Shown piece by piece: positions 3,847-31,247 of a DNA stretch of 50,083 nt (position 1 is the stretch's first letter; the number at the start of each line of letters is the position of its first letter). The translations under genes and the position numbers were made by a program. The notes below the pieces were generated by a model, which did not search any database, was not told where the DNA came from, and was given only the letters and a program-made list of their open reading frames with translations. Source of the DNA: Cytophagaceae bacterium (GTDB taxonomy: Bacteria > Bacteroidota > Bacteroidia > Cytophagales > Flexibacteraceae); the NCBI GenBank assembly GCA_947441055.1, contig CANETC010000001.1:1-50083 (forward strand), in the 5' to 3' direction.

Positions 3847-4028
3847 CCTTTACATAATTGCAGCATTTCTATTTTTACCAACCTGCTTTCGAAGGCATAA
3901 TTCAGAAATCAATTATTAAAAAACAGGAAAGAGACAGCCTTGCAGAACTTGCAAAGTTTGCAGACTTCCTTTCAATTTTACCCTTTTCTTTGTTTTGGAA
4001 ATGGCCTTATCAAATACCAAGGGGTAAT

Positions 4029-11614: not shown

Positions 11615-11619
11615 GTTAT

Positions 11620-12786: not shown

Positions 12787-12797
12787 TGTTTTGCGCT

Positions 12798-14813: not shown

Positions 14814-14822
14814 ATGTCTTAA

Positions 14823-15242
14823 CTATGATTGATTTAATTTTTGTGATTCTGTTGATTCATACTTTTTGTTGGTAAGGCGTTTAAAATTTAAACTGGTTTC
14901 CCCAAAATTAATCAGCAAACCAATTTCCAGATTATATGCCTCCAGGTAATTTATGGCTTGAGCAAAATGAACATCCTCTAATTTGCTTATTGCTTTTAAC
15001 TCTACCGATAGATTGCCTTCTATTAAAAAATCTACCCTTCTGGTGCCTATTTGTTCTTCTCTATAGAAAATAGGCATTTCAAACTCTCTGCTAAATTCAA
15101 TTCCAGCCAACCTCAATTCGATTGCAAGAGCCCGCTGGTAAATTACTTCCTGAAAACCATTGCCCAATGTTTTATGAACAGTCATGGCACATCCGATTAT
15201 TTTGGATGTCAATTCTGAATATTTGTATTCCTCTTTAATCAT
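14823..15242 (-). CDS. GxxExxY protein (PD-(D/E)xK-like small protein common in R-M operons)
   Basis: GNGFQEVIYQRAL carries the GxxExxY motif; RVDFLIEGNLSVELK also seen. The start is taken at ATG 15242 (MIKEEYKY). The track's 22-codon extension to 15308 runs into the tandem repeats. Confidence 0.8.
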   Translation of the reverse strand: MIKEEYKYSELTSKIIGCAMTVHKTLGNGFQEVIYQRALAIELRLAGIEFSREFEMPIFYREEQIGTRRVDFLIEGNLSVELKAISKLEDVHFAQAINYLEAYNLEIGLLINFGETSLNFKRLTNKKYESTESQKLNQS

Positions 15243-15246
15243 TGCA

Positions 15247-15497
15247 ATTGTCTTAACTGTGATTCTTTTGATATTAATTTTTTCTTTCGAATCATCGCGA
15301 ATTTCCACATTGTCTTAACTGTGATTCTTTTGATTTCTGTGATTTTGGTGATATTAATTTTTTCGTTTCTAATTATCGTGAATATCCTCATTGTCTTAAC
15401 TGTGATTCTTTTGATTTAAGTGATTTCAATGAAATCTATCTTTTCTTCCTATTATCATATTAATCAAAAAATCACAAAAATCATAGTTCAGACATTT
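15247..15497 (-). repeat. three tandem repeat units (62, 81 and ~105 nt) with terminal inverted repeats TGTCTTAACTGTGATT ... AATCATAGTTCAGACA
   Basis: ATTGTCTTAACTGTGATTCTTTTGAT starts at 15247, 15309 and 15390. The last unit ends ...AATCATAGTTCAGACATT near 15497. The family is shared with 16660-16747 and, inverted, with 5519-5777. Confidence 0.8.
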
Positions 15498-15504
15498 TCC
15501 TGAT

Positions 15505-16629
15505 TCAGACCTCTACTTCACCATTCATCAGCCTTGGCAATAAAATATCCCGTGCCTCCCGGAGTTTGGTGTTTTGTTTTGTCAAGTTTAATATCAAGTT
15601 ATACATCTGTTCCGCCTCAACTTCAAATTCTTGTTGTATTTTATCACTTGGTGTTTTCAACTTGACTTTCATCAGTTCTACTTTTGTAACAGCATTAAAT
15701 ATTGCTCCATTTCCGATAACATCCTCTGCAAAAAAGAATTCTTTCAATTGATGATAGAAATAATTCTGAAAACCTTTTTTGCTCCTAAATGCACATAAAC
15801 CCCGACCAATGCAGATTTTATCACTTGTGAAATTAATTCTTCCTACTGGGGCTCTTACTGAAAATAAAATATCTCCTTCTTCTGCAATTTTAATTGGTGC
15901 ATTACAATAGATTCTGTGTTCTACAAAGTAGTTTGAAAAATTAGTTACTCCTTGGTGAAAGGGCAAATTATCTTCCTTTTCATTGGTATATGTATCAGAA
16001 GTTGGACTTTGGCCCATAATAACATATGCCAATTCCTCAATGGTAAATTCTTCCAACTTTTCAGTTTGAACAATCAACTTATAAATCAAAAACGCCTTCT
16101 CCTCCAGCAACTTTATCCGCTTCAAATTATTCTCTATCAAATCATCATAAGCCGATAAAATGGAAGCGATTTTGCGCTGGGTGGGGAGTGGGGGGAATTC
16201 TATCGGTTTGCCACCAATAATATCAGGATTAACTGCCGGGTAATTAGCCCCTTGTTCATACGCAACTAAATATGCAGTAAAACCGGGTTCGCTAATCAAA
16301 TAGTATAAAAACCTTGGATCTGTTTTATTTGCTTTAGGTCTTAAAACAGCAAATCCAGTTGACACAATTGAATTTTCAAAAGGAGATTTAAAGTAATAAA
16401 ATGACCTATTGCCTGGTCTAACTGTGGCTAAAATTGTGTCATCTTTTCTAACAACTCTCTTAGCTCTTAAAGGTGCTTCGCTTAATGGAATCTCATCATT
16501 AGATGTCACAACACCACTTCCAACAGAAGTAATGTCAAAGTATCGGATAAAATCGTGCGGATAGTTCCTTGAAATATTTTCAGGGTTTATATCGCACAGG
16601 TCAAAAACATTTCCTTTCTCCCATTTCAT
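15505..16629 (-). CDS. hsdS: type I R-M specificity subunit
   Basis: Two variable halves are separated by the conserved helix LPTQRKIASILSAYDDLIENNLKRIKLLEE, with a C-terminal helix TKLREARDILLPRLMNGE. The gene is AT-rich relative to its neighbours. Confidence 0.88.
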   Translation of the reverse strand: MKWEKGNVFDLCDINPENISRNYPHDFIRYFDITSVGSGVVTSNDEIPLSEAPLRAKRVVRKDDTILATVRPGNRSFYYFKSPFENSIVSTGFAVLRPKANKTDPRFLYYLISEPGFTAYLVAYEQGANYPAVNPDIIGGKPIEFPPLPTQRKIASILSAYDDLIENNLKRIKLLEEKAFLIYKLIVQTEKLEEFTIEELAYVIMGQSPTSDTYTNEKEDNLPFHQGVTNFSNYFVEHRIYCNAPIKIAEEGDILFSVRAPVGRINFTSDKICIGRGLCAFRSKKGFQNYFYHQLKEFFFAEDVIGNGAIFNAVTKVELMKVKLKTPSDKIQQEFEVEAEQMYNLILNLTKQNTKLREARDILLPRLMNGEVEV

Positions 16630-16659
16630 ATCGCCAACTCTTTATAGTTTTCAGAAATG

Positions 16660-16747
16660 CTTGTCTTCACTGTGATTTTTATGATTAAAGGATTACCCTG
16701 ATTAATCATACAATCATACCAATCAGATGAATCATAGTTCAGACATT
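16660..16747 (-). repeat. single ~88-nt copy of the TIR-bounded repeat family, between hsdM and hsdS
   Basis: CTTGTCTTCACTGTGATT...AATCATAGTTCAGACATT. The ends are mutually complementary and match those of the 15247-15497 units. Confidence 0.7.
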
Positions 16748-16750
16748 GTT

Positions 16751-18823
16751 TCATAGTGCAAGCTCTTTGTAATTGTTCATAATGATTTGGGCCAGTTGAG
16801 TGGCTTCTTCATTCAATCCTTCCAACTCAATGTGTATTTCGTTCAGGCGTTCTTCGTAGTCAGAGTCATCATCAGTAGCGGTATCCACGCCAACATATCG
16901 GCCCGGGCTCAGGCTCCAGTCTTTGGCTTCAATTTCTTTTTGCGTAACTACTTTACATAATCCTTCCACATCGGTATAAACGCCTTCGGGGAAACGGTTT
17001 GTAAGCCAATGGGCTTGTTTGTAGAAATATTCGGTTTCGTGCAGCAATCCGGGTTCTTCTTCATCGGGGTTGCCGCTGAGTTGCTGTTGCAGGTCTTTCA
17101 GGATATCCAGTTTTTCTTTGATACCAAGGTCTTTCCAATCTCTGTTTTTGGCCAGCTGATATTCTTTATTTGCTGTTGAGATAACATCCAGCAATTGTTT
17201 TATCAGCTTATCCTGTGGTTTGCGGATTGCTTTGCATTGCCGGGCAATTTCTTCCAGGATCTGGTGGTCGGGCATTGCTTTCTCGGCAACCGAGATCAAT
17301 TGCTTTTGCAAATCAGCCATTTCTGGCATACCTGCCAGATTCAAGGCCTCAACCCATTTTTCGGCAGCCGGTATTTCTTTGGTAAAACGCGCTGCAAATT
17401 CAAATACAGCACGATAAGTCACTTGTAAATGCTCCTGTAATGCCCGAGTTGCATCTGCAGTTTCCTTGGCCAGGGCAGTAGTCTGCTCCAAATATCCGGA
17501 AACTGTTTTTTCAAATTTTTCGGCATGGCCGCGGTATAAGCCAACAATACAAATCAGGTTTTGCAATTGCTCGGGGCTAAAGTCGTTTACCTTGCTGGTA
17601 ACCTTGCGGTAAATTTTTCGGGCATCAAGCATCAGTACTTTATCTTTTTTTGCTTCGTCCTGTTCTTTGGCTCTGTCAAAAAACCACAGGGTGCAAGGCA
17701 ATGAACGGGTATAAAAAAAGTTGTTGCCAATGGCCATCATCACATCTACCGCACCTGTTTTTACCAGCTTTTCCCGTATGTCTTTCTCGCTATGGCCTGC
17801 ATCGCTGGCAGACGAAGCCATTACAAAACCTGCTCTGCCGGTTGGCTTCAGGTAGTTGTAGAAGTATTGAATCCACAGATAATTGGCATTGTCGTTTTTG
17901 GGCAGGTTAACGGTCCCGTCCAGTTTCAGCCGGGGATCTTTTTTAACGGCATCCTTTGCCTTATCCACTCCATCCACATTAAAGGGAGGATTGGCCATTA
18001 CAAAATCGGCACCACCTACAATGTTGTGTTTGTCTTCGTAAAAAGTATTGCCTTCCTGAATATTGCCTTCCAGTCCGTGAACGGTTAAGTTCATCTTTGC
18101 CAGTTTGGTATTGAGGTCGGCTTTTTCCTGTCCGTAGAAGGTAACTTTTTCGGCAGGCTTTAGTCCTTCGCTTTCTATGAAATAGCCCGTTTGCACAAAC
18201 ATACCTGCACTTCCGCAGGCCGGATCGAACACTATGCCGTGGTCGGGTTCAATTACATTTACAATGGTTTGCACAAGGCTCATTGGTGTAAAAAATTCTC
18301 CGCCTTCCTGCGCACCGGACATGGCAAATTTGCCCAGGAAGTATTCATAAATCTTCCCGAACAAATCGCCTTCGGCTTTTTGCAACACTTCTTTATTGAA
18401 AATGCGGAGCAGTTCGCGCAAGAGGTCTTTGCTGAAAATGGAATAGTTTTTTGGCAAAACACCTCTGAGGGTTTCATATTCCTCTTCAATCAGTCTCATG
18501 GCATTGTCTATGGCCTGACCGGTGTCTGCACTTTCGGGCAGGTTAACCAGAAAGTCGAACCGGGCTCCTTCAGGAAGAAACATGGCATTTTGCTCCAGAA
18601 AATCATTTTTTTCTATTGCCCTCCTGCCTCTTTGAGGATGAAAGGGCAGGGTTTGCTCTACCAGGGCCTGAACTTTTACAAATCGGTTAAAGGCATGCCG
18701 CAGAAAAATTAAGCCCAGCACGGGCATGGAATATTCTGATGCCGTTAGTTTGGAATTGGCTCTAAGCTGGTCGGCGGCTCGCCAAAGTTCTGCCTCCAGT
18801 TGTCTTAATTGTTTACCCTGCAT
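16751..18823 (-). CDS. hsdM: type I R-M N6-adenine DNA methyltransferase subunit M
   Basis: HsdM_N segment LWRAADQLRANSKLTASEYSMPVLGLIFLR. SAM motif VFDPACGSAGMF. Catalytic motif VMANPPFN. About 200 aa of helical C-terminal extension. Confidence 0.92.
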   Translation of the reverse strand: MQGKQLRQLEAELWRAADQLRANSKLTASEYSMPVLGLIFLRHAFNRFVKVQALVEQTLPFHPQRGRRAIEKNDFLEQNAMFLPEGARFDFLVNLPESADTGQAIDNAMRLIEEEYETLRGVLPKNYSIFSKDLLRELLRIFNKEVLQKAEGDLFGKIYEYFLGKFAMSGAQEGGEFFTPMSLVQTIVNVIEPDHGIVFDPACGSAGMFVQTGYFIESEGLKPAEKVTFYGQEKADLNTKLAKMNLTVHGLEGNIQEGNTFYEDKHNIVGGADFVMANPPFNVDGVDKAKDAVKKDPRLKLDGTVNLPKNDNANYLWIQYFYNYLKPTGRAGFVMASSASDAGHSEKDIREKLVKTGAVDVMMAIGNNFFYTRSLPCTLWFFDRAKEQDEAKKDKVLMLDARKIYRKVTSKVNDFSPEQLQNLICIVGLYRGHAEKFEKTVSGYLEQTTALAKETADATRALQEHLQVTYRAVFEFAARFTKEIPAAEKWVEALNLAGMPEMADLQKQLISVAEKAMPDHQILEEIARQCKAIRKPQDKLIKQLLDVISTANKEYQLAKNRDWKDLGIKEKLDILKDLQQQLSGNPDEEEPGLLHETEYFYKQAHWLTNRFPEGVYTDVEGLCKVVTQKEIEAKDWSLSPGRYVGVDTATDDDSDYEERLNEIHIELEGLNEEATQLAQIIMNNYKELAL

Positions 18824-18952: not shown

Positions 18953-20437
18953 CTACACCAGCCTCCAGCCCCATTGCTTCTTTTCCTTGTTGTAGGATTT
19001 TATGGCATGGCCGGTGAGGTCGCTTCCATCGCTCAGCTGGTATTTCGCTACCAGTGCGGGGGGGATAAATGCATCTTCCAGAAATCCGAAGGTCTTGCCT
19101 TCCAGTATTTTTACCTGGCCGGCAACATACTTGTAAAAGCGGCTTTTGAATTCTTCATCCTGCACCTTTTCTGCTGTGTAGACCTGATGCATGCCTTCTT
19201 TGCTTCCACCCTGAAATCGCACGCTCAATACATCGCCCGGTTTAACATCCGGGAGCAAGCGGTCATATTTGAAGTAGCCAAGCCGGTTTTCTGATGCTAT
19301 AAAGTTGAGCATCTTCTTGTCCTTGTTAACGAACTCCACAAAAATCCGCTCTTCCGGCACATCGCTGTACAGAATAGCATCGGCCCGGAAAGCATGCTGT
19401 TTGTAAAACTTCAGGTTGGATGGCAAATCGCTTGCCTGCTGGTACCAATCTTCAAGAATCCAGCTAACCACTTCCGGTGGGATTTTAAAGCCCATATCGG
19501 AGCGAACCTCTACCAGCGTGTTGATTTCGGTTCTGGCCTCGTTGTAAAATCCTTTTTCCATCATTAACCCAGCCATTTTCTGGCGCAGGCTCACCAGCAT
19601 TTCTTTCGGGCTTTTACAAAGTAGGGCCCGGCAATAACAGGCAAGCACAGTATCCGGATCTTCGGAAAAAGCCTCGGCAATTACCTCCCAAACCCAGAAG
19701 TCATTTTTCTTTTTCCGGGCAAAAGGCAGCAAGGCCTCTAGCACATTATTTCTGTTTCCAAGCGCTAGTAATAGCTTTGCCTGAAAATAGGGTGGGTATT
19801 GATATTCTGGGTGATTCTCGACCACTTCTTCCAGCCGGGGTAAAAAGGCGGCCGCCTTACCCCGGTCAAATCCTGCTTGTCCGGGTAGCAATTGTTTGGC
19901 ATAGGCAATGTAGGCCTGCTCTACAAGCGCCATCATATCCTTGCCATTTTCTAATTTTTCCTTTTGCCAGTCTTCCGGCCGGAAATGGTTGAAATTCCAC
20001 CAGTCGGCAAAAGGTATGTAATGAGCGCTACCCTTGAGCAATTTATGAAATGCCTTGTAGAGAAAACTGTAGCCTTCTTCTCCTTTTGGGAAATGGAACG
20101 ATTTTATTGCCTCAAAAAGCTGAACGGTCTGCTGCTGCGGGAGTGGGTTAAGCTTTGCCATACTCATACCCATACGGCCGATTTGCCAAGCAACATTGCC
20201 AAACAGCAGTTTTTCATCTACTGTAAGTTCGAGTTCACGAATCGCATTCAGCCAAACAAGAAATTCGTTGAAAGCTCCGGCATGGGCATTGAGTTTCAGG
20301 TAATCGTAGTACACCCAGCTGATGTTGCGTTTCGGCCAGATGTTATCCGGTTCGGCAATACACTCCGCCTTTGCCATTTCAAGTGCGGCTTCCAGATTGC
20401 CTTGTTGACGTAGTTCTTTTATTTCTTTAGACGGCAT
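18953..20437 (-). CDS. hypothetical protein: N-terminal TPR-like helical repeats, C-terminal tandem OB/S1-like segments
   Basis: 494 aa. The helical-repeat N-terminal part includes QQGNLEAALEMAKAECIAEP. The C-terminal beta-rich segments are GDVLSVRFQGGSKEGMHQVYTAEKV and GQVKILEGKTFGFLEDAFIPPALV...GHAIKSYNK. The start overlaps the helicase stop by 11 nt. The domain calls are by eye only. Confidence 0.45.
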   Translation of the reverse strand: MPSKEIKELRQQGNLEAALEMAKAECIAEPDNIWPKRNISWVYYDYLKLNAHAGAFNEFLVWLNAIRELELTVDEKLLFGNVAWQIGRMGMSMAKLNPLPQQQTVQLFEAIKSFHFPKGEEGYSFLYKAFHKLLKGSAHYIPFADWWNFNHFRPEDWQKEKLENGKDMMALVEQAYIAYAKQLLPGQAGFDRGKAAAFLPRLEEVVENHPEYQYPPYFQAKLLLALGNRNNVLEALLPFARKKKNDFWVWEVIAEAFSEDPDTVLACYCRALLCKSPKEMLVSLRQKMAGLMMEKGFYNEARTEINTLVEVRSDMGFKIPPEVVSWILEDWYQQASDLPSNLKFYKQHAFRADAILYSDVPEERIFVEFVNKDKKMLNFIASENRLGYFKYDRLLPDVKPGDVLSVRFQGGSKEGMHQVYTAEKVQDEEFKSRFYKYVAGQVKILEGKTFGFLEDAFIPPALVAKYQLSDGSDLTGHAIKSYNKEKKQWGWRLV

Positions 20438-22616
20438 ATTCTTCTTGTTTCAGGGTTTGAATTGCTAACTGTATTTCGGACAGTAAAGCCGGGCTATTGG
20501 ATTTATTGGTCAGTGGCAGAACTCGGCCAAAAAAGCCATGCTGGTTGTATTCAAAATCGAGCATCGCACGCTGGCTGCCTTTGGTAAAAGTGTATCGTTC
20601 CCGGTAATCAAAGTGCTCTACGGCTTCAATGGCAATATCGCTTGAATCAAACAATGATTTTAAATCGTCGTATAAGTAGCGGGTAAAAGGAAATTTCTCT
20701 TCCTGCTCTACTTCAAAGGCCAATTTACTCAGAATGGTTTCCGGGCTATTCCGCTGAATGGTCAGTTTTGGGAGTTCTTGTAAAATACCGGCGATTTCGC
20801 TGTTGAATGCAGCATGGGGGGAGGCTCCCGGAATTAAAGCAAACTGTTTCTTAAATTCGTTTTGTCCATTTATCCAGGTTTTAAGGCTTGCCCGCTCCTG
20901 CTCCCGTTGAAAAGTGTACCAGATTTCATAGGCCTTTCTCTCCCAGGCCACAATTTCAATATACTTGTTTCGTACAGCATGCCGTACCTGAATGAAATGA
21001 TCCTGGAGTTGAGCAGGTTGTTCTGCAAGACCCATTTCGCTGAGTGCTTTTAGTATGTCGGGATCAATTGAGATGTCTTCAGGTTGAAGGACTTTACCGC
21101 TCAGTTCTTCCAAACCTTTTATCACCGGCATTTCCAAAAAGGATAAAGTGGAATAAGAGTTGAAAAAGGGTGGATTTAGAGCAAAATGTTTTTTTGAACT
21201 GCGGGTTACAGCCGTATAGGCCCAGCGATAAAACTCTTTATTGGTCTTACCGGCCTTTCGCTGCTTATCCGTGAGGTAGTTGAAGTTATCCGCATTTTCA
21301 TGATCCCAGATGCTGAATACCTGTTCCCACTCTCCACCCTGCGCTTTATGACAGGTTACAGCATAGCCATATTTTAACCGCAGGCAGTTAAAATACCCAT
21401 CATTCATTATGGCATCTTTAAACTCGGGCGTCTCCGATCTAAGCCCTGGATGCCTTTGCGTGAAATCCACATACAAGGCCTGGGTTTCTTCAGGAGTCAG
21501 GTAATTATCTCCGAAAAGGAAATTCTCCAGCATCAAGCCTTTTACCAACTTGTTGCTGCTTTCGCCATCAGGAAAAACAAGTTCCACATTGCGCCAGACC
21601 AAATTTACAGGGGCTTTCCCCTTCAGGTAAATTGTGCGTCGGATTGGGGAATCATCTGCAGAATTCACTACAGCAAATTCACCATTAAAAACACCCTTGC
21701 GGTAGTTATTGGCCCCAATAATCACAATTTCACCTTTCTGGGGCGGAAGCATCCGGCTGCCATATTTTCTTTCCCTGATCCTTAAATTGATATCAAGACA
21801 GGTTTTGTTTTTACTGGCAATAATGATTTTTGTGCTTTTCACACCTTCCCATATACTCAAAAAATCATCACCTGCGAGATTGAAAACATCCCGGTTGTTT
21901 GCCTTCAGATTAAAGTCGTTGAAATAGCCGGCCGAAATACTCTTTCGGATTTTAGTCGCCGCAAGCAGGATACCGCTTTCGCCCTCCTGGCGCAAAACTT
22001 CTTTTAGCTCCGCCTCCTGACAGGAAAGTTTAAATTTTTCCCTGAAATAATCGGGTTCAAAAGCTTTGGAACTGTTATCGCCAACGGGAGCAAGCTGGCA
22101 GGGATCTCCAACAAAAATAATCTTGGAATGAACATTGGGTTCCTTAACCCGAGTATATTCGATTAGGTCATCAAGCAAAAATCCAGATCCAAACCGAAAA
22201 AATTCGCCTTCACTTTTGGCATTCGAAACCATGGAAGCCTCATCCACAATAAAAACTTTGCCAGCCACATCAATGTTATTGCGCAAAGCATACGAATAGA
22301 AAAAGGAGTCTCCTTCATTAACTTCTACCAGGCGATCAAAGCAATAAATGCCTTTATGGATGGTTACAGCTTCCTGGCCTGTCTTTTCCCGAATTACTTT
22401 GGCGGCCCGCCCGGTTGGGGCCAGAAGAGCAAAATCTTTTGAAATGGAATTCAGGTATTGAACAAGTCCTTTGAGAATGGTGGTTTTACCACTACCGGCA
22501 TACCCTTTTAGCATAAACACAGGATCTGAACCTTGGAAAAAGCGCTCCAATTTGCCCAGGGCTTCTTCCTGCGAAGGGGTTAATTGCAGTTCCTCAAAAT
22601 GACTGAAAATACGCAT
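20427..22616 (-). CDS. SF1 (RecD/Dda/Pif1-like) helicase with ~260-aa unknown C-terminal extension
   Basis: Walker A GYAGSGKTT. Motif II FIVDEASMV. Motif III IFVGDPCQLAPV. Motifs V/VI YAVTCHKAQGGEW and YTAVTRS. The start lies 8 nt after the upstream ORF's stop. Confidence 0.8.
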   Translation of the reverse strand: MRIFSHFEELQLTPSQEEALGKLERFFQGSDPVFMLKGYAGSGKTTILKGLVQYLNSISKDFALLAPTGRAAKVIREKTGQEAVTIHKGIYCFDRLVEVNEGDSFFYSYALRNNIDVAGKVFIVDEASMVSNAKSEGEFFRFGSGFLLDDLIEYTRVKEPNVHSKIIFVGDPCQLAPVGDNSSKAFEPDYFREKFKLSCQEAELKEVLRQEGESGILLAATKIRKSISAGYFNDFNLKANNRDVFNLAGDDFLSIWEGVKSTKIIIASKNKTCLDINLRIRERKYGSRMLPPQKGEIVIIGANNYRKGVFNGEFAVVNSADDSPIRRTIYLKGKAPVNLVWRNVELVFPDGESSNKLVKGLMLENFLFGDNYLTPEETQALYVDFTQRHPGLRSETPEFKDAIMNDGYFNCLRLKYGYAVTCHKAQGGEWEQVFSIWDHENADNFNYLTDKQRKAGKTNKEFYRWAYTAVTRSSKKHFALNPPFFNSYSTLSFLEMPVIKGLEELSGKVLQPEDISIDPDILKALSEMGLAEQPAQLQDHFIQVRHAVRNKYIEIVAWERKAYEIWYTFQREQERASLKTWINGQNEFKKQFALIPGASPHAAFNSEIAGILQELPKLTIQRNSPETILSKLAFEVEQEEKFPFTRYLYDDLKSLFDSSDIAIEAVEHFDYRERYTFTKGSQRAMLDFEYNQHGFFGRVLPLTNKSNSPALLSEIQLAIQTLKQEEYAV

Positions 22617-22624
22617 AGCTCATT

Positions 22625-24511
22625 TTACTGAGGCAAAGGTGAAATGGAAGTGTGCGGTGGAGGTGCATAGGAAAAAATCTTAAGAAAAATCTTAAAGAAG
22701 AATAAAACATCCGTTGAATTAATTTTATTATCAGCCTTTACTCTACCTGTATAATGTGCAGCTACATTGCTTCTAAAATACCTAAGAGCAATTATCTTCT
22801 CAATATCTACTTTCGGCACAGAGTGGCGGAAATGCAAAACAGAAATTATTTTGACTAATGAGGTTGCATCGATACCACTTGAAAATGTGGTTTTTAACTC
22901 GCTCTTCTCAAAAGCATTAAATGACTTTATAGTTTCCGCTTCATTTTCGTTTTGAAATTCAATTCGACCTCTTACAAGTTCTAATTTAGTCAATATGTTC
23001 TTATTGTCGGATGATTGAGTAAAAATGTCAATTAATATTTCCTTATCAATTGAACAAACCTTACCGGAAGAGTTCTTAAAATCAAAAACCCCAACAAATG
23101 GCAAATCACAGTAATTCTCCAATACCTGAAAAGAAATTAAAAGACATTGATTTATTATTAATTCATTGGAAGATGATAGAGAAAGTAAATTAAAAATTTG
23201 GTCGAGAAATCCATTTTTTCCAAAAGTTAAATCAGCAAATTCTTTTCCATCAACCCGATTTGAAAAAATATTGACCCTTTTTAAGTTATAAATATTCCGA
23301 AAAAGTTCGGCTAAAAAAATATTATTTGCAGCTTCAGAAACCTGTTTAGTAAAATGCAGAAAAGTTGTCCGCGTTTGATTTCTGTTATTAAACGTTTCAG
23401 GCGACTCCTTTATTGTGAAGTATTTTACACCTTGCTCTAAACAATTTTGATAATTCCACACCTTATTTGATGCGGTTGAAACAATAATTTGAATTCCCGG
23501 ATTTTGTTTCTTAATAAACTTAATAATTTGAATTCCTGTTAAACTTTCAAATTCCTGCTCTATAAAATCATCATCATGTAATCTGAGATCAATGATAAAA
23601 ATATCAATTGGCTGACTTGAATTAATTACATCGAACACCCAATTTGTAATTTCAAATATCAATTGTTCTTTACTCTTATCCTTCTGAAAATTAATATATG
23701 GGACAATTGAAGCTTTTGATTTATCAAAAATATAGCTATAAAATTCAAACCATCCTTTATATGCTTCATCATCAATGAGCCCAAAATTTAATCCATCAAT
23801 ATTTTTAATTAAAAAATTGCCAGTATGCTTTCTTGAATTGAATATTTGTCGGTTTGCTTTTGCTTCTAAATGTTTAAAATGTAATGTTTTTAAATATTCT
23901 AAATCGAATAATTTTTTTCGAAAACTAGAATAAAAAAAATTACTTTCATCTTTCTCTAACATTGTAAAATATCTTGCAAGCGCCCATTCATTTGCTACAT
24001 TATGATGGTTTTGGTAATTCGCAGGCGGGTTAATAGTAATTGATTTATAAAAGGAAGATAAATCATAAAGCTTCTGTATTCGACCTTCAGAAAACATATT
24101 AAGAACATTATAGTAATCTTCTAAGGACTCTTTCATCAGATAGAGGCCATTTGTAAAAAGGATTGAAGGTTCCGGATAAATCAAGCCCAAATACTGAAAG
24201 CTTTCTTCGCAAATTATTATAATTGGAATTTTAGCTTTTTCACCTAAACCTTTAGACATCCTAATATGATAAGCTAATCTAAGTCCAAGATATTCTAAAT
24301 AGTTCTGGGAAAGTGCTGCCTTAATAAAAACAATATCGCTCCTTTCAATCTTTTTCTTAAGACCAACATCATGCTCTTCATCTAGGCTTTCAGTAATATA
24401 TAAATCTATATCCTTATCGAAATCAAGATCAAATCGGAATGATTCAGAAACTGGGAAAAAAATATCTTTATTAAATGAGGTGTTGTCAGAATGAACTAAT
24501 AACTTTTTCAT
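22625..24511 (-). CDS. uncharacterised 628-aa protein: N-terminal pseudo-receiver-like region, central CheY-like receiver domain, C-terminal HEPN-like Rx5H motif
   Basis: The REC pattern spans residues ~241-370 (23402-23791): FGLIDDE, IDIFIIDLRL (candidate Asp308), IQIIVSTAS, GVKYFTIKE. The C-terminus LRYFRSNVAAHYTG gives Rx5H at 22754-22774. About 30% GC. The start forms an ATGA overlap with the upstream ORF's stop. Confidence 0.5.
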   Translation of the reverse strand: MKKLLVHSDNTSFNKDIFFPVSESFRFDLDFDKDIDLYITESLDEEHDVGLKKKIERSDIVFIKAALSQNYLEYLGLRLAYHIRMSKGLGEKAKIPIIIICEESFQYLGLIYPEPSILFTNGLYLMKESLEDYYNVLNMFSEGRIQKLYDLSSFYKSITINPPANYQNHHNVANEWALARYFTMLEKDESNFFYSSFRKKLFDLEYLKTLHFKHLEAKANRQIFNSRKHTGNFLIKNIDGLNFGLIDDEAYKGWFEFYSYIFDKSKASIVPYINFQKDKSKEQLIFEITNWVFDVINSSQPIDIFIIDLRLHDDDFIEQEFESLTGIQIIKFIKKQNPGIQIIVSTASNKVWNYQNCLEQGVKYFTIKESPETFNNRNQTRTTFLHFTKQVSEAANNIFLAELFRNIYNLKRVNIFSNRVDGKEFADLTFGKNGFLDQIFNLLSLSSSNELIINQCLLISFQVLENYCDLPFVGVFDFKNSSGKVCSIDKEILIDIFTQSSDNKNILTKLELVRGRIEFQNENEAETIKSFNAFEKSELKTTFSSGIDATSLVKIISVLHFRHSVPKVDIEKIIALRYFRSNVAAHYTGRVKADNKINSTDVLFFFKIFLKIFSYAPPPHTSISPLPQ

Positions 24512-25191
24512 GCTATTTCAAGTATTAATCTATCTAGAATTTGCTTAATCTGCTTAATCTCGTCAATAGAGACAAGATTAAACTCATTTCCTGAAAGAGT
24601 TTTTTCTGTTTTCTCGTTCAATAAATCGCTTTTAATAACTTCATTAATTTTCAGATCTCTTACCCTTTTAATAATTTCACTTTCATCTATTTGCGCATTT
24701 GGAATTTGCGTTTTGATTACTTGCTTGTTTATAGCGACGGCTAAATAATTCCGTAGGTTAAGAAGCAGACTCAATTTCCACTTTCTCCCGAATTGAAGTA
24801 CTAGTAAATTGATATTACTATTTTCCTCAAATTTCTCTATAAACAATTTAAGATTTTCAGAATAAAAATCTCTTGAATTAATATGAAGGAAGGGAAATTC
24901 TACATCCTTAATTACACTTGATGTAATTCCACCAGAAAAGAAAATTAATGGTTTTCTTTTTGATCTACAATAATCCTTTAATGTATCTCTAACTTCAGTT
25001 GAAAATGCAGATCGGTGAGAGGCAATACATTCAAATTGATCGAGTATACTGGTGTCATTAATCTTTAAGGAGTTAACTAGGGTGTCAAATTCAGAACCGG
25101 TAATTATTGAAACTGATTTATAACTTTTCAAATCAAAATCAGCATACTGTTCAAGTCGGCCTATTCTATCTTCAATTATTGAAATTTTCAT
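24508..25191 (-). CDS. uncharacterised 227-aa protein (weak flavodoxin/receiver-like pattern)
   Basis: MKISIIEDR... and KRKPLIFFSGG weakly resemble the beta1 and beta4 strands of a CheY-like fold. ATGA overlaps occur at both ends (25188-25191 and 24508-24511). About 30% GC. No family was recognised. Confidence 0.45.
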   Translation of the reverse strand: MKISIIEDRIGRLEQYADFDLKSYKSVSIITGSEFDTLVNSLKINDTSILDQFECIASHRSAFSTEVRDTLKDYCRSKRKPLIFFSGGITSSVIKDVEFPFLHINSRDFYSENLKLFIEKFEENSNINLLVLQFGRKWKLSLLLNLRNYLAVAINKQVIKTQIPNAQIDESEIIKRVRDLKINEVIKSDLLNEKTEKTLSGNEFNLVSIDEIKQIKQILDRLILEIA

Positions 25192-27365
25192 TTATAAAAA
25201 GTTAAGATGTGCTTGAAACCATCTGCCGAAACAATTTTTTCAAAGGCTGGAGTCTTTTCATCCGAAACCAGGTAGTTAATCCGGTATGCACCTTCAGAAA
25301 ATTCAGACTCAATACTCCAATCGCAGAGATTTTTTAATTTGTCTTTTATTGTACTAAAGTCTCCTCTCTTTAGGTTGAGCTTGTCATCATGAATCGACAA
25401 TCCCTTCTTTATTGAATTCTGATGTAAAATCTCAAGAACCATTTTCTCAGAATTACTTACAGTTATTGCATATTCTACATCGGGATGTTGCGGATACTTT
25501 TGGATTCCTTCAAAAATTAAATCAAGAGCTTTACTGAGCCATTGGATATCAGCATAGAATGTTTTGTTTTCCAAATTGGAAATCTTTGGAGGGGAAAAAC
25601 TGATTAAGTAACTATCATGTTTTTGAAGTATTAGGTTTAGCAATGCAGAGTTTTCATCCCTAACTTCAATTTCATTTTTGAACACATCAATTATGTGCTT
25701 AAATTTTTGAAGTGTTTTGCCGGACCGCTGAATCTGAAACTTTTCAGGTAAAATAAAATCTTCTGGATTCAATGAAGTATCATTTTTACAGGCCGCAATT
25801 AACTCTGGTGAGCTCCATCCAAAATAAATGCGCTTTTTTGGATTAATATCTCCCCATCCAGTATTTTCTATCTTACTATTGAAAATAAAATTATAAATTT
25901 TCCCATTAAGATTTGGACTTAACTCCTTAAGCCTAAAGCTAAAAGAATTATATCTCTTTTTTGCTTGATCAATAAAATCATTCAAATCTTTAAATAAATT
26001 TGAATCCCTGCCGGCATCCCAACTATGAGTTGTATATTTCAATGGACTATTATTAATTGAGAAATTTTTTAATAAGTTAACAAGTTCCTTGGGGCAATGA
26101 AAAATTGGAATTATTCCGATTTCTATTTGTTCAATATTTTTTTCTTGAGGCCTCTTTTCAAAGGCATCAAAAATACTGTCTAAATCTATTCCGCTAAAGT
26201 CTTCTTCTAAGTCAAAATCGTTGGATATGCCATCCATTGATTTTGCTTTATTTGAGTTTACAGTAGAAATATCAATCAGTCTTTTTGATAATTTATTAAA
26301 TACAGAGCTACTTGGACTCTTCACCATCTTCAAAAACTCCAGCTTGCCAGCCAGTACATTTTCCATTGCAGGAGCGCCTTTTTTTACATGGCCTTTATCA
26401 TCCAGGTATTGCCTGGAAAAGATGGCAGATGCTTTTTCATATCCATACCGTTCCCAATAATACAGCCACATACGAAGTTGTTTGATGTAGCGTTTTGGCA
26501 CATTGGGTTTTTCGTGCACAAGCAGCCCGGTTACCTCTTTCCGGTAGCCGTCTTTCTGGAGGCGGGTCTTGCTCTCCTTGATGTAAAATCCCTGTTCTAC
26601 TATTATTCGCCTGAGTTCCGTTAGAAAATCGCCTTCTGCATGGTAAACACTGTGCATGGAACTGAAGGTTATGTCATCTGCATAGCGGCTGTATGTTAAA
26701 CCAAATCTTTTGGCTACCCCGCTAAGAAGATGATCTAAACGCTGGCAAACCATATTTGTAATTACAGGGGATGTAGGGGCGCCCTGCGGCAGGACTTTTC
26801 GTTTCACTTTTTCCCATTCGCCGTTTGCATTCGGGCGCTCCACTTCCATTTCTGTACAACATAGCCCTGCAATAACGGAGGCAAGTTTTATTCTTTCCCC
26901 AACCAGGTTAAACGGTTTCAGTTGGAGGCATTTCCAAACTCGTGCCTGTTCAATGGTAGGAAAAAAATCTTTTAAATCTATGTTGTATACATAATACTTG
27001 CCAACATGAGGCAGGGCATTATCTACAATGGATTTATCTCGAACAAATCCCGTTGCAGCCTTGTGTGGTTCAAATACACACTGCAATATAAATGCCATTG
27101 TACGCTGTATGGCTTTTAACCCTTTCACCGGTGCATGTATGCTTCGTTCGCCACCCGACTTTTTCTGGATTTTAAATTCGGCATATCGCTTTCCTCCCAG
27201 ATTGGCATTTGCATACCAGGTAAGCTGTTTTATCTGAAAAGCAACCGCCTTTTCACCGAAAATCAGAGGTTTTACTTCATTCAGCAACTGAAGCAAATCT
27301 TCCCGGGTCTGCATTTTTGAGAATGCATCCTTGATTTGGTCGATATTTTCCTGTTGCGGTTTCAT
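25188..27365 (-). CDS. retron-type reverse transcriptase fused to a ~375-aa C-terminal region of unknown function
   Basis: RT residues ~60-345 carry retron hallmarks: KSIVDNALPH (NAxxH), DLKDFFPTI, LPQGAPTSPVITN, YSRYADDITFSS (YADD at 26673-26684), RKEVTGLLV (VTG at 26526-26534). No recognised family after about residue 350. Confidence 0.85.
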   Translation of the reverse strand: MKPQQENIDQIKDAFSKMQTREDLLQLLNEVKPLIFGEKAVAFQIKQLTWYANANLGGKRYAEFKIQKKSGGERSIHAPVKGLKAIQRTMAFILQCVFEPHKAATGFVRDKSIVDNALPHVGKYYVYNIDLKDFFPTIEQARVWKCLQLKPFNLVGERIKLASVIAGLCCTEMEVERPNANGEWEKVKRKVLPQGAPTSPVITNMVCQRLDHLLSGVAKRFGLTYSRYADDITFSSMHSVYHAEGDFLTELRRIIVEQGFYIKESKTRLQKDGYRKEVTGLLVHEKPNVPKRYIKQLRMWLYYWERYGYEKASAIFSRQYLDDKGHVKKGAPAMENVLAGKLEFLKMVKSPSSSVFNKLSKRLIDISTVNSNKAKSMDGISNDFDLEEDFSGIDLDSIFDAFEKRPQEKNIEQIEIGIIPIFHCPKELVNLLKNFSINNSPLKYTTHSWDAGRDSNLFKDLNDFIDQAKKRYNSFSFRLKELSPNLNGKIYNFIFNSKIENTGWGDINPKKRIYFGWSSPELIAACKNDTSLNPEDFILPEKFQIQRSGKTLQKFKHIIDVFKNEIEVRDENSALLNLILQKHDSYLISFSPPKISNLENKTFYADIQWLSKALDLIFEGIQKYPQHPDVEYAITVSNSEKMVLEILHQNSIKKGLSIHDDKLNLKRGDFSTIKDKLKNLCDWSIESEFSEGAYRINYLVSDEKTPAFEKIVSADGFKHILTFYK

Positions 27366-27377
27366 TATCTTTTAAAA

Positions 27378-27615
27378 ATGTTCCTTGATGCCTGCTGCGT
27401 ATTCTTTGTTTATGAATCATGAAAAATTAATTCATAATAATATAAGAATATTTCATAATAATATAAGATCTTCAGTTTTCACTTACTGATGAACTATTAA
27501 TTACCAGGAGACATTCATTCCGGATTACTCCGGAACACCAGCCGATTTGAAATTGCCTTGCGGCAACCTCCAGCTGGCACGAGTCAATATCTTGCAGCAG
27601 GCATTCAATGAACAT
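27378..27615 (-). ncRNA. candidate retron-like msr/msd non-coding RNA bounded by an a1/a2-type inverted repeat
   Basis: The arms are 27594-27615 (GCAGCAGGCATTCAATGAACAT, + strand) and 27378-27398 (ATGTTCCTTGATGCCTGCTGC). They pair over 11 + 3 + 6 bp with one bulge and one mismatch. The arm nearest the RT lies 12 nt from its ATG. The 195-nt interior contains nested hairpins at 27538-27577, 27518-27535 and 27410-27437. This is a prediction only. Confidence 0.5.
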
Positions 27616-27746: not shown

Positions 27747-28763
27747 ATGGCAACCAATAAGAACGCTTTAATCCGATACAAGGTACTGGATGCCTGCTTC
27801 CGCAATACGGGCAGAAAATTCTTCTTTCAGGATTTGATGGATGAAATGGAAAAGGTGTTGAATGAAATTGACCCCGGTAGCAGTGGAATAAGTCGCCGTC
27901 AGCTGTTTGACGACATTGCCTTTATGGAAAGCGGCGAAGGCTGGAGCATTGACCTTGCTCGCCACAGGGATGTCAAGAAGGTTTATTACCGGTATGCCGA
28001 CCCTGATTTTTCAATCAACAATATGCCATTGAGTGAGATTGAAATTCAGCAACTGAAAACGGCCTTGGAAATTCTTACCCAATTTAAAGGCATGCCCCAG
28101 TTCGACTGGATTCATGAAATGGTGCCAAAACTTCAACAGGGCCTTTCTAGCCCGGAAAGTAATGCTTCAGCCATCATTGAGTTTGACAGCAACCAATATC
28201 TGCGTGGCATTGAGTTTCTGGGACAGATTTATATTTCCATTTTCTATAAAAAGGTTCTGTCTATCGGTTATCAGCCATTTGGTACAAGTCAGCCCTTTGA
28301 GATTGTGATTCACCCATACTACCTTAAGCAGTATAATAACCGTTGGTTTCTATTTGGCTACAATCCCGATAAAAGCAAATACGACTGGAATCTTGCCCTC
28401 GACCGTATTTCCTCTATCAGAGAATTGAATACGCGGTATCAGCCTAATTTATCCATCGACTGGCAGGAGTATTTTGAAGATATGATTGGGGTTACCAAGT
28501 CAACTGAAGCCAGAGTTGAAAAAGTCGTCTTGCACTTCAAGGGTGGCACCGGATTTTACATAGAAACGAAGCCCTTGCATGGGTCTCAAAAATCCAGGTG
28601 GCTTGATGAGGACACGCTGGAAGTAAGTATGGAAGTTGTCATCAATTATGAGCTCGAACGGCTTATTCTTTCTTATTCCGACACGGTTACCGTTTTGGAA
28701 CCAAGCAGTTTGTCTGATTTAATCCGCAAGAGGCTGGAGAATTCTCTTGGCACATACTTATAA
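27747..28763 (+). CDS. WYL-domain transcriptional regulator (N-terminal wHTH, central WYL, C-terminal WCX-like)
   Basis: N-terminus NALIRYKVLDACFRN...ISRRQLFDDI looks like a wHTH. HPYYLKQYNNRWFLFGY is the WYL-type motif. It is transcribed divergently from the RT operon. Confidence 0.8.
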   Translation: MATNKNALIRYKVLDACFRNTGRKFFFQDLMDEMEKVLNEIDPGSSGISRRQLFDDIAFMESGEGWSIDLARHRDVKKVYYRYADPDFSINNMPLSEIEIQQLKTALEILTQFKGMPQFDWIHEMVPKLQQGLSSPESNASAIIEFDSNQYLRGIEFLGQIYISIFYKKVLSIGYQPFGTSQPFEIVIHPYYLKQYNNRWFLFGYNPDKSKYDWNLALDRISSIRELNTRYQPNLSIDWQEYFEDMIGVTKSTEARVEKVVLHFKGGTGFYIETKPLHGSQKSRWLDEDTLEVSMEVVINYELERLILSYSDTVTVLEPSSLSDLIRKRLENSLGTYL

Positions 28764-28950: not shown

Positions 28951-30246
28951 ATGAACAACATCGTTTGCCCCAAATGCAGGGAAACATTCAAGGTGGATGA
29001 GGCCAGTTTTGCCGACATCCTGAAGCAAGTGCGCGACCGGCAGTTTAATGAAGAACTGCAAAGCCGCATGGAAATGGCAGAAAGGGATAAGGAAAGCGCC
29101 CTGAAACTGGCAGAAGCCAAACTCCGGAATTCTTTTCAGGAGTACCTCTCCAAAAAGGACAAGGAACTTTCGGATTTGCATTTGCAAAATTAGCGTCAAC
29201 TCAATGAGCAACTCGCCAAAAGAGAAATTGAACTCGCTGAAATGAAATCCAAAATTGAACATGCCGAAACTGAGAAGAAGTTGTCGGTGGCGGAGGCGGT
29301 TCAACGGATTGAAATAGAACGAAACAATCTGGTGAATGATGTAAAAATGAAGGACGCGGAAAAGGAGTTGCTTGAAAAAGCCCTGACCGAAAAATACAAG
29401 TCTGAACTTCAGTTGAAAAACGACATCATCCGCATGAAGGATGATGAAATTGCGCTCCGCAAAGACATGAAGCTGAAGCTCTCAACCAAAATGCTGGGTG
29501 AAACACTTGAGCAGCATTGCGAGACGGAGTTCAATAAAATTCGCTCCATGGCTTTTCCCAATGCCTATTTTGAAAAGGACAATGATTCAAGTTCGGGCAG
29601 CAAAGGCGATTTTATTTTCCGTGAAACAGATGCGGCAGGCAATGAAATTGTCTCCATCATGTTTGAAATGAAAAACGAAGGCGATGAAACCGCCACAAAA
29701 AAAAGAAACGAAGATTTTTTTAAAGAGCTCGACAAGGACCGCAACGAAAAGAAGTGCGAATATGCCGTGCTGGTAACGCTGTTGGAATCGGAAAGCGAAC
29801 TGTACAACGGCGGCATTGTGGATGTGTCGCACAAGTACCCGAAGATGTATGTAATCCGGCCTCAGTTTTTCATTCCCATCATCACCTTGCTGCGCAATGC
29901 CGCTTTGAATTCGTTGAAATACAAAGCAGAGCTGGCCCTGGTGCGCAACCAGAGCATTGACATCACCAATTTTGAGGATGATTTGAATAAATTTAAGGAG
30001 GGATTTGCCCGGAATTATGAACTGGCAAGCCGGAAATTTATGACAGCCATTGAGGAAATAGACAAGACCATCAGTCACCTCCAGAAAACCAAGGAGGCCC
30101 TGCTTTCCTCCGAAAACAACCTTCGCCTGGCCAACAACAAAGCGGAAGACATCTCCATCAAAAAACTCACCCGCGACAATCCCACCATGATGGCAAGGTT
30201 CTCGGCATTGTCGGATGATGCTTCAAATCAACCAACTGTAAACTAA
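28951..30246 (+). pseudogene. DUF2130-family protein (zinc-ribbon N-terminus, coiled coil, RmuC/PD-(D/E)xK-like C-terminal part) interrupted by an in-frame TAG at 29191-29193
   Basis: Track ORFs 28951..29193 and 29242..30246 share one frame (29242 - 29191 = 51). The sequence across the stop reads LHLQN*RQLNEQLAKREIELAEMKSK with a continuous coiled-coil character. N-terminus CPKC. C-terminal part GDFIFRE...IMFEMKNE. Confidence 0.7.
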
Positions 30247-31025: not shown

Positions 31026-31247
31026 ATATTACCGCAAATGTGCGGAATCAAATCCCCCTGCCCTGCGCCCCGGATAGCAACGAAAAGCCCGTAGGGAGGA
31101 ATGTGCGGCTGGCGGGTTCCTGGCCACAGGAACACGAAACGGACTTGTAGTGGATAGCCGGAATTGGCGCCCAAAAATCCCAAAAAACCCGCGTTGCTTT
31201 TCACGACACGGCTCGGTACTTTTGCCCACTGATACCAAATCCGAATT

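Follow-up and report, generated by a model that had tools for sequence, protein, structure and literature searches.

The 50,083-nt stretch of DNA analysed here, in the following called the window, originates from a Cytophagaceae bacterium (assembly GCA_947441055.1, contig CANETC010000001.1, forward strand) and contains a locus which we read, with about even confidence, as a retron under the control of a WYL regulator whose reverse transcriptase (RT) is fused in frame to a conflict-type histidine-kinase-like (HisKin) domain and probably signals to a receiver-controlled RNase. The RT-HisKin protein (725 aa) is preceded by a retron-type non-coding RNA (ncRNA) and followed by a 227-aa protein, a 628-aa predicted effector and two genes of the TOTE type (Table 1). 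A first-pass annotation had proposed an undescribed RT-based defence system made up of a retron-type RT and two uncharacterised partner proteins at 22625-27615. The three overlapping reading frames of the minus strand lie where it had placed them, and both ATGA stop/start overlaps (25188-25191 and 24508-24511) were confirmed by direct reading of the sequence. Its boundaries were drawn too narrowly, since the unit very probably runs through the TOTE pair.

The translation of the 725-aa protein contains the RT motifs SIVDNALPH, LPQGAPTSP, YSRYADDITFS and VTG, which are invariant across 16 homologues down to a sequence identity of about 51%; the alignment of these homologues likewise shows NAxxH (as VDNALPH), YADD and VTG to be invariant. 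The RT domain is matched by the Pfam model RVT_1, and the best 25 PADLOC matches listed for the protein are all retron RT models. The top models, RT-Protease_XI, RT-TIR_XII, RT_XIII and RT-Toprim_I-C, cover only the RT part, with a score of 326 bits for RT-Protease_XI as compared with 160 bits for RT_IX. The retron models of NCBIfam outrank those of group II introns and Drt2 by far, yet all of them remain below their own cut-offs. Both the motifs and the retron-type RT of the first-pass annotation were thus borne out.

Three other RT classes were considered and rejected. A group II intron RT was dismissed based on the score of the maturase model (57 bits, cut-off 300) and the lack of any Rfam intron between 15 and 35 kb, and a defence-associated or unknown-group RT (DRT/UG) based on the score of Drt2 in NCBIfam (29 bits) and the lack of any DRT/UG model among the best PADLOC matches. 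The reading as a diversity-generating retroelement was rejected as well.

The type-specific partners or fused domains of the typed retrons I-XIII (Mestre et al. 2020, as represented by the PADLOC v2 models) were not found at the locus, and neither the 227-aa nor the 628-aa protein matched any PADLOC model. Furthermore, the words "kinase" and "WYL" do not occur in the retron classification paper (PMC7736814). No typed retron of PADLOC v2 or NCBIfam covers this retron RT, and no typed retron, DRT or other model of these libraries covers its partner genes, in agreement with the first-pass annotation. The term "undescribed" used there holds insofar as the system is untyped in both libraries, but it is overstated, since the HisKin-conflict and iREC domains of the locus are already Pfam families described from conflict contexts. 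The list of retron effectors given with it had moreover left out HEPN, a known class (type IX, PMC7736814).

Many RT-HisKin homologues, among them many of 814 aa, have about 90 additional residues in the RT, inserted behind its second conserved block (alignment columns ~170-320); these are absent from the window protein. A large group of retron-type RTs of Bacteroidota (400-526 aa), represented by the loci L041, L058 and L085, which come from metagenome-assembled genomes (MAGs) of Bacteroidales, and by L030, L067 and L149, is likewise untyped by PADLOC. These RTs are followed by a protein of 260-298 aa that has no PADLOC match and, in the versions of L067 and L149, no Pfam match either. The fetched flanks of all six loci include a WYL homologue, often several kb from the RT.

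The leader of the RT gene contains an inverted repeat with two arms of 11 nt (a1, 27594-27604; a2, 27388-27398) which are 100% complementary and 195 nt apart; by our own estimate, the chance expectation of such a repeat in a 450-nt leader is about 0.02. When the 450-nt leaders of the RT genes of 30 homologous loci were compared, 20 of them showed an exact inverted repeat (10-16 nt) at the same relative position, with a different sequence each time, its 5' arm lying about 195-295 nt and its 3' arm about 10-37 nt before the RT start codon. Such a change of sequence at a constant position is the behaviour of a retron a1/a2 stem. The a1/a2-like repeat that had been noticed upstream of the RT in the first-pass annotation therefore proved to be a perfect repeat that covaries among 20 loci.

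The 5' part of the element shows a conserved order of a1, ATATTGA, stem 1, hairpin 2 and TGAATGT, followed by a long variable region, and a conserved CATAAACAAAGAATA is located just 5' of a2 at the 3' end of the ncRNA. The invariant G of the conserved ATTGA, about 9-12 nt after a1, is a candidate for the guanosine whose 2'-OH would prime the synthesis of branched multicopy single-stranded DNA (msDNA). The fold of a leader stretch of 233 nt is far more stable than that of shuffled sequences (z = -7.5).

A covariance model of the 5' part of the ncRNA (model R1) has a single match in the window (27507-27612, minus strand, 87.7 bits). It matches 35 genome loci, always on the strand of the RT and just upstream of it where the position of the RT is known. 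In addition, 26 metagenome loci are matched, each on the strand of the RT, which amounts to 61 related loci. No match of the model was obtained in two RT-less TOTE loci or in HisKin loci with leucine-rich repeats (LRR) or ankyrin repeats. An Rfam search of 15-35 kb at a permissive threshold assigned no known family to the leader. Judged by its covariation, the element is a genuine, conserved retron-like ncRNA with a covarying a1/a2 stem and two covarying msr hairpins at about 130-260 nt upstream of the RT. The sole Rfam match in the searched region was a sub-threshold Flavo-1 element elsewhere (31063-31168, score 34.4 bits, gathering score 42, E = 5e-4), located upstream of an EF-P-like reading frame and in keeping with an origin of the window from Bacteroidota.

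The C-terminal part of the RT protein, about 375 aa in which the first-pass annotation had recognised no family, was found to consist largely of a known domain: about 300 aa match PF22561, "Histidine Kinase domain observed in conflict contexts", with E = 9e-63 and a score of 213 bits (cut-off 27) over profile positions 2-303 of 303. The residue H447 is invariant, also in lineages in which the HisKin domain is encoded by a separate gene, and represents the candidate phospho-histidine. H423 was rejected for this role because Tyr, Leu, Ile or Val occupies its position when the HisKin domain is a separate gene. Taking into account the name chosen by the Pfam curators, the invariant H447 and the intact receiver of the partner protein, PF22561 is a putative kinase domain.

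A profile search with the HisKin domain against 1.84 billion representative proteins retrieved 804 clusters, and in nearly all of the best 150 matches listed the matched stretch ends at, or within a few residues of, the C-terminus. A tblastn search with the domain gave no match in plasmids. One "phage" match was recorded, a HisKin-conflict-like stretch (positions 2849-3718, 30% identity, 95% coverage) in the unannotated 7-kb "Bacteriophage sp." record MT837349.1 (GenBank) from human faeces, which may be a mis-binned bacterial fragment.

The 628-aa protein had been called uncharacterised, with a CheY-like receiver pattern and a C-terminal Rx5H motif. Both of these features are present and conserved in 30 homologues, and its N-terminal domain belongs to the existing Pfam family iREC. 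The pocket residues of the receiver, DD247-248, D308, S348 (with T346) and K368, vary little or not at all among the 30 homologues. The Pfam model Response_reg remains below its threshold in the window protein (21.7 bits against 30.2) and is recorded for many homologues. An intact receiver pocket only makes sense if the protein is phosphorylated.

In the C-terminal domain the motif RSNVAAH (R580-H586) is conserved in the same homologues, E465 and H586 being invariant and R580 nearly so. More divergent members of the family have RNxxxH in place of RSNVAAH, and RNxxxH is the classic HEPN signature. The AlphaFold2 (AF2) model of the protein (pLDDT 86.8) places the R/H pair at the end of a helix within a largely helical domain that includes a beta insert of 65 residues. 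The protein combines iREC, a receiver with an intact phospho-acceptor pocket and, based on the conserved motif, a probable HEPN domain. A further motif, HHSxANEWxxxR, is nearly invariant between the iREC and receiver domains and could not be assigned to any family.

The 227-aa protein has no match in the PADLOC, Pfam or NCBIfam libraries. In its AF2 model (pLDDT 89.6, pTM 0.80), helices follow an alpha/beta domain of five strands that is of the flavodoxin/receiver type, and a Foldseek search against the PDB gave weak, non-significant matches to flavodoxin-like and receiver-like folds. H59, S61 and F85-S86-G87 are invariant in the family. On the model, E7-D8 come after strand 1, S86 after strand 4 and R107, a Lys in most homologues, after strand 5, as in a receiver. 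The invariant H59 falls exactly at the position of the receiver phospho-Asp with the flanking pocket residues retained, and it is invariant also in versions fused to iREC proteins. Of the earlier description as an uncharacterised receiver- or HEPN-like protein, the receiver-like fold thus stood, with His59 in place of the phospho-Asp. A possible paralogy with iREC was examined by an hhalign comparison of the 227-aa and 628-aa families, which yielded a probability of 1.2%. The gene is always located between those of HisKin and iREC, and it is fused to the iREC gene in L082, L073, L053 and L065.

The RT and its two partners are conserved side by side in about 40 genomes, which confirms the co-occurrence expected of a genuine gene trio in the first-pass annotation. 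The order of a divergent WYL gene, RT-HisKin, a protein of about 220 aa and an iREC-REC protein is met again, within unrelated gene neighbourhoods, in Mucilaginibacter, Pedobacter, Chryseobacterium, Flavobacterium, Spirosoma, Maribacter, Saprospiraceae, Chitinophagales, Bacteroides xylanisolvens and a Balneolaceae MAG. Some genomes encode RT and HisKin separately, with the 227-aa protein joined to the N-terminus of the iREC protein; this fission and fusion argue for a physical partnership. Most related loci have a divergent WYL homologue about 300-400 bp upstream of the RT, and one was found beside an LRR-HisKin cassette. As judged from this conserved position, the divergent WYL regulator is part of the system. 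It had been noted as a neighbour before, and it is indeed present next to the operon, but it is more than that, namely a conserved part of the module.

The N-terminal partners of HisKin comprise RT, ankyrin repeats, leucine-rich repeats and a large uncharacterised region. In the window and in L001-L005 the HisKin gene is followed by a protein of about 215-227 aa and the iREC-REC protein, and the same two genes, the first encoding about 215 aa, come next in the LRR version (L087), the ankyrin version (L088) and a version of 1306 aa (L089). Two of these three loci additionally hold a gene with a WYL or WCX domain. A conserved cassette with interchangeable N-termini places RT and msDNA in the position of a variable sensor head.

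The two genes downstream of the 628-aa effector were identified as TOTE-A (PADLOC PDC-M16A, E = 4e-262; Pfam AAA_30, PIF1 and TBP-TOTE) and TOTE-B (PDC-M16B, E = 2.5e-209; DUF7017, S1CSD-TOTE-1 and S1CSD-TOTE-2). All the TOTE domains of Pfam among them (TBP-TOTE, DUF7017, S1CSD-TOTE-1/-2) score above their cut-offs. A passage of PMC12458937 resolves the name as TPR, OB, TBP, Effector and credits it to Aravind, Iyer and Burroughs (2022). This name by itself suggests that the effector is a variable partner.

Among the 28 loci of the RT clade with enough downstream sequence, 16-17 have the TOTE pair directly downstream on the same strand. The reverse test made use of metagenome loci retrieved through TOTE-B alone, of which those with at least 8 kb upstream were evaluable (n = 27). 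A retron RT is located upstream on the same strand in 25 of the 27, and the ncRNA was present in all but one of the scanned RT-bearing TOTE-B loci with at least 5.5 kb upstream. The gene order RT, variable genes, TOTE-A, TOTE-B is fixed. The variable genes consist of the HK cassette, of a protein of about 290 aa alone, of an 850-aa protein with a weak GHKL match, of a UvrD-type helicase with partners or of a PLD nuclease, often with a small DUF3127 gene. This DUF3127 gene, frequently found just before TOTE-A or after the iREC-REC gene (L130, L149, L004, L001 and others), is absent from the window.

The GC content of the RT domain (42.5%; 41% at third codon positions, GC3) resembles that of the TOTE genes (44-47%), whereas the stretch from about 26315 to the end of the 628-aa reading frame shows 30-32% (GC3 23-29%). 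An RT-only protein, encoded in a locus of the order WYL, RT, 296-aa protein and further genes, comes closest to the RT half with 89% identity; the best full-length relatives share 70-72% identity. The break in GC content inside the RT gene was read as the mark of a swapped-in module and suggests that the HK cassette was recently exchanged into an older retron-TOTE operon. Taken together, the TOTE pair is very probably part of the system, and the locus looks like a conserved retron front end and TOTE back end around an exchangeable effector slot, occupied here by the HK-227-628 cassette.

The genes from RT-HisKin to TOTE-B either overlap or lie 8 nt apart; the gap between the 628-aa reading frame and TOTE-A is 8 nt in the same orientation, read directly, and TOTE-A and TOTE-B overlap by 11 nt. 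Judged by this spacing, they form a single operon.

Table 1. Features of the retron-TOTE locus in the window (nucleotide positions in the window; aa, residues of the respective protein).
Feature	Position	Strand	Basis
WYL/WCX transcription regulator, divergent from the retron operon	27747..28763	+	Pfam WYL and WCX, PADLOC WYL models
Retron-type ncRNA (msr-msd)	27385..27612	-	inverted repeat, covariation, RNA model R1
msr stem 1	~27537-27578	-	compensatory changes in 6 of 8 pairs
msr hairpin 2	~27517-27536	-	can fold in 33 of 35 distinct sequences, with different bases each time
Conserved TGAATGT	~27511-27517	-	
Variable msd	~27400-27510	-	
RT-HisKin reading frame, 725 aa	25188-27365	-	reading of the frame, translation
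Retron-type RT domain (aa ~45-385)	26211..27233	-	Pfam RVT_1, PADLOC
HisKin-conflict domain (aa 422-724)	25194..26102	-	Pfam PF22561
227-aa putative adaptor: receiver-like alpha/beta domain (His59 at phospho-Asp position) and helical C-terminal half	24508..25191	-	AF2 model, alignment
628-aa predicted effector	22625..24511	-	Pfam iREC, alignment, AF2 model
iREC, "inactive receiver" (PF22563; aa 41-125)	24137-24391	-	Pfam E = 4e-15
HHSxANEW motif (aa 169-180)	23972-24007	-	alignment
Receiver (aa ~241-372)	23396-23791	-	conserved pocket residues
HEPN-like C-terminal domain, probable (aa ~435-615)	22667-23209	-	E465, R580-x5-H586
TOTE-A / PDC-M16A, SF1 (RecD/PIF1-like) helicase with C-terminal TBP-TOTE	20427..22616	-	PADLOC, Pfam
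TOTE-B / PDC-M16B, DUF7017 (TPR-like) and two S1/CSD-TOTE domains	18953..20437	-	PADLOC, Pfam

In the most far-reaching reading, we tentatively propose, with somewhat less than even confidence, that the retron reports the state of its msDNA via a His-to-Asp phosphorelay instead of a stoichiometric toxin release and does so as one exchangeable effector cassette of a hitherto unrecognised retron-TOTE supersystem in which WYL, ncRNA, RT and the TOTE pair are constant, the 227-aa protein being a new relay or brake element. In the mechanism preferred for the explanation given at the outset, the WYL regulator would hold the operon in a repressed or tuned state. The RT would copy the msd part of its ncRNA into msDNA, staying bound to its product, and the RT-msDNA particle would serve as the infection sensor in the position that is filled by LRR or ankyrin repeats elsewhere. 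If the msDNA is cut, modified or bound by a phage product, the kinase-like domain would switch and phosphorylate itself on H447. The phosphoryl group would then be transferred to D308 of the receiver of the 628-aa protein, while the 227-aa protein, in contact with iREC, could act as adaptor, relay or brake. The phosphorylated receiver would free the C-terminal HEPN-like RNase, and cleavage of RNA would arrest the cell and abort the infection. The most likely target of the nucleic-acid-binding TOTE proteins would be the same msDNA or the nucleic acid of the phage.

Several results weigh against this proposal. The HisKin profile matched no solved kinase among the PDB sequences, its hhalign comparison with five kinases of E. 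coli (EnvZ, PhoR, PhoQ, CpxA and BaeS) yielded a probability of 1.8%, and no N, G1 or G2 ATP-binding boxes are recognisable in the domain. With regard to the predicted RNase, a Foldseek search of the 628-aa model against the PDB gave nothing below E = 0.67 (Csm6, 6tug, E = 2.6; HepT, 6m6w, E = 8.8). The Pfam HEPN models remain sub-threshold (HEPN_RiboL-PSP, E = 0.005 in one of 15 members; Csm6_HEPN, E = 0.11), and a profile of the C-terminus retrieved nothing relevant from the PDB sequences. The HEPN-like call of the first-pass annotation is consequently backed by a conserved motif and not by a significant structural match. No activity could be assigned to the 227-aa protein from its library or Foldseek matches. 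Finally, about 40% of the RT-HisKin loci are devoid of TOTE, which is thus not required for the cassette.

The HisKin results would also suit the main alternative, a dead kinase-like domain that serves as docking or dimerisation scaffold. In the manner of characterised retrons, the RT-msDNA would then physically keep the 628-aa effector inactive via iREC and the 227-aa protein and release it when a phage damages the msDNA. An "inactive receiver" next to a receiver-like protein without its Asp suggests protein-protein contacts rather than chemistry, and retron type IX provides an example of an msDNA-scaffolded inhibition of a HEPN RNase (bioRxiv 10.64898/2026.07.14.737667). However, the full pocket of DD247-248, D308, S348 and K368 is kept in 30 of 30 homologues, although an unused pocket should decay, and H447 is invariant in every lineage, including those with a separate HisKin gene. 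Taking this into account, a sequestration without phosphotransfer appears rather unlikely.

The phosphorelay proposal also has to be weighed against the possibility that the retron and the TOTE pair are the functional core and TOTE the effector. The HK-227-628 genes would in that case be a regulatory front end gating TOTE or transcription, and the C-terminus of the 628-aa protein would not be a nuclease. The constancy of RT and TOTE around varying middle genes, the operons of RT, a small protein and TOTE without any HK cassette (L067, L024, L029 and L149) and the lack of significant Foldseek or Pfam matches for HEPN point in this direction. On the other hand, the cassette occurs with WYL and without TOTE in about 12 RT loci as well as in the LRR- and ankyrin-HisKin loci, which implies an output of its own, and the conserved R...H pair together with the invariant E465 looks catalytic. 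We therefore regard this arrangement as improbable.

That the RT-HisKin trio belongs to one defence system and TOTE (PDC-M16) to another, the two lying side by side in an island like the type I restriction-modification (R-M) genes, seems very improbable: PDC-M16 has a PADLOC entry of its own as a candidate system of two genes, the mentioned TOTE-free loci exist and the flanking defence genes vary by locus (pAgo, McrBC, Cap4), but a mere neighbourhood is hard to keep after the retrieval of 25 of 27 TOTE-B loci with this RT clade upstream on the same strand, together with ncRNA and WYL, and in view of the 8-nt spacer, the common orientation and the fixed gene order.

The type I R-M operon of the window (8390-18823) had been described as adjacent to the RT genes; it is present, and the two TOTE genes (18953-22616), which the first-pass annotation did not mention, intervene. 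It comprises hsdM (16751-18823), hsdS (15505-16629) and hsdR (8390-11614), with two extra genes between hsdS and hsdR that encode a fusion of a RecQ-like helicase and a phosphoribosyltransferase (12798-14813) and a DprA-like protein (11620-12786). Defence-associated domains were furthermore detected in an AAA_14/DUF4143 ATPase (2497-3846) and in a protein with Schlafen AlbA_2, HATPase_c_4 and HTH domains (3858-5429). On the other side of the locus, a reading frame for an 80-aa CxxC protein (28951-29193) is located just upstream of a DUF2130 reading frame (29242-30246), and the two may be one gene split by a frameshift or stop.

To our knowledge, all characterised retrons couple the msDNA to the effector by direct complex formation. 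If the proposed wiring is true, a retron connected to kinase and receiver would bring to retron immunity a signalling that is enzymatic and can be amplified and reset, and infection sensing by a retron would become addressable by point mutants (H447, D308, R580/H586 and YADD). The occurrence of LRR, ankyrin or RT sensors on one and the same cassette points to a general module of bacterial immune signalling whose pattern-recognition heads can be exchanged. The two-way linkage between retron and TOTE provides the first functional handle on TOTE, an uncharacterised candidate system, and the model of the conserved ncRNA may be used to annotate a large retron clade of Bacteroidota that is untyped by the PADLOC v2 models and NCBIfam. 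Our literature search, whose coverage did not extend to the 2022 review naming TOTE, retrieved no paper on the fusion of retron and kinase, on the ncRNA, on a linkage of the retron with TOTE or on any experiment. Since the HisKin-conflict, iREC and TOTE families have already been named as conflict-associated, some computational description may exist.

Among the known retrons, type IX, for example Retron-Yin1, consists of RT, ncRNA, a KH-HTH protein and a HEPN RNase (PMC7736814; bioRxiv 10.64898/2026.07.14.737667), the latter being an effector that is released by damage or cleavage of the msDNA (bioRxiv 10.64898/2026.07.14.737667). The window locus resembles it in the retron RT, the msr-msd ncRNA, a HEPN-type RNase as predicted killer and the likely sensing of msDNA. 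In contrast to type IX, the RT scores 160 bits on RT_IX against 326 bits on RT-Protease_XI, a KH-HTH partner is missing and the HEPN-like domain is located behind iREC and receiver domains. The kinase-like domain fused to the RT furthermore implies covalent signalling instead of the DNA-scaffolded ring of type IX.

The types XI, XII and I-C, with an RT fused to protease, TIR and Toprim, respectively, provide the best RT models and share the design of an RT with a C-terminal functional domain. They differ in that only the RT part matches (model positions ~24-325 of 510), in that the fused domain of the window protein is HisKin-conflict and not an effector enzyme, and in that two further proteins are needed here. 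Types XI and XII occur mostly in Bacteroidota. Type XI has been reported without a recognisable ncRNA (PMC7736814), whereas the clade of the window RT has a well-conserved one.

With two-component systems and phosphorelays the locus shares an operon-encoded kinase-like protein with an invariant His and a partner with a complete receiver pocket, and its extra receiver-like modules are reminiscent of multi-step phosphorelays. Unlike in these systems, the sensor is an RT with RNA/DNA and the output is a probable RNase and not a DNA-binding domain. The HisKin domain is too divergent to be aligned with canonical kinases, one of the "receivers" has His in place of Asp and another one is annotated as inactive.

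WYL-regulated defence operons are known, as exemplified by CapW with CBASS and BrxR with BREX. The window locus has the same divergent WYL regulator immediately upstream of a defence operon, with the difference that the regulated operon opens with a retron ncRNA. Both TOTE genes of the window are full-length members of TOTE/PDC-M16. The PADLOC definition of PDC-M16 models only two core genes and does not capture the near-obligate upstream retron and WYL gene of this TOTE-B subfamily.

A resemblance in gene content was likewise observed to the HisKin-conflict/iREC cassettes (PF22561, PF22563) with sensors other than RT (L087, L088 and L089), which have the same three genes in the same order, often with WYL/WCX. 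By every feature tested at the sequence level, the window cassette is a member of this family. The stretches seen of the cassettes with other sensors contain neither RT nor ncRNA nor TOTE, and the window thus adds a retron to the sensors found on this cassette.

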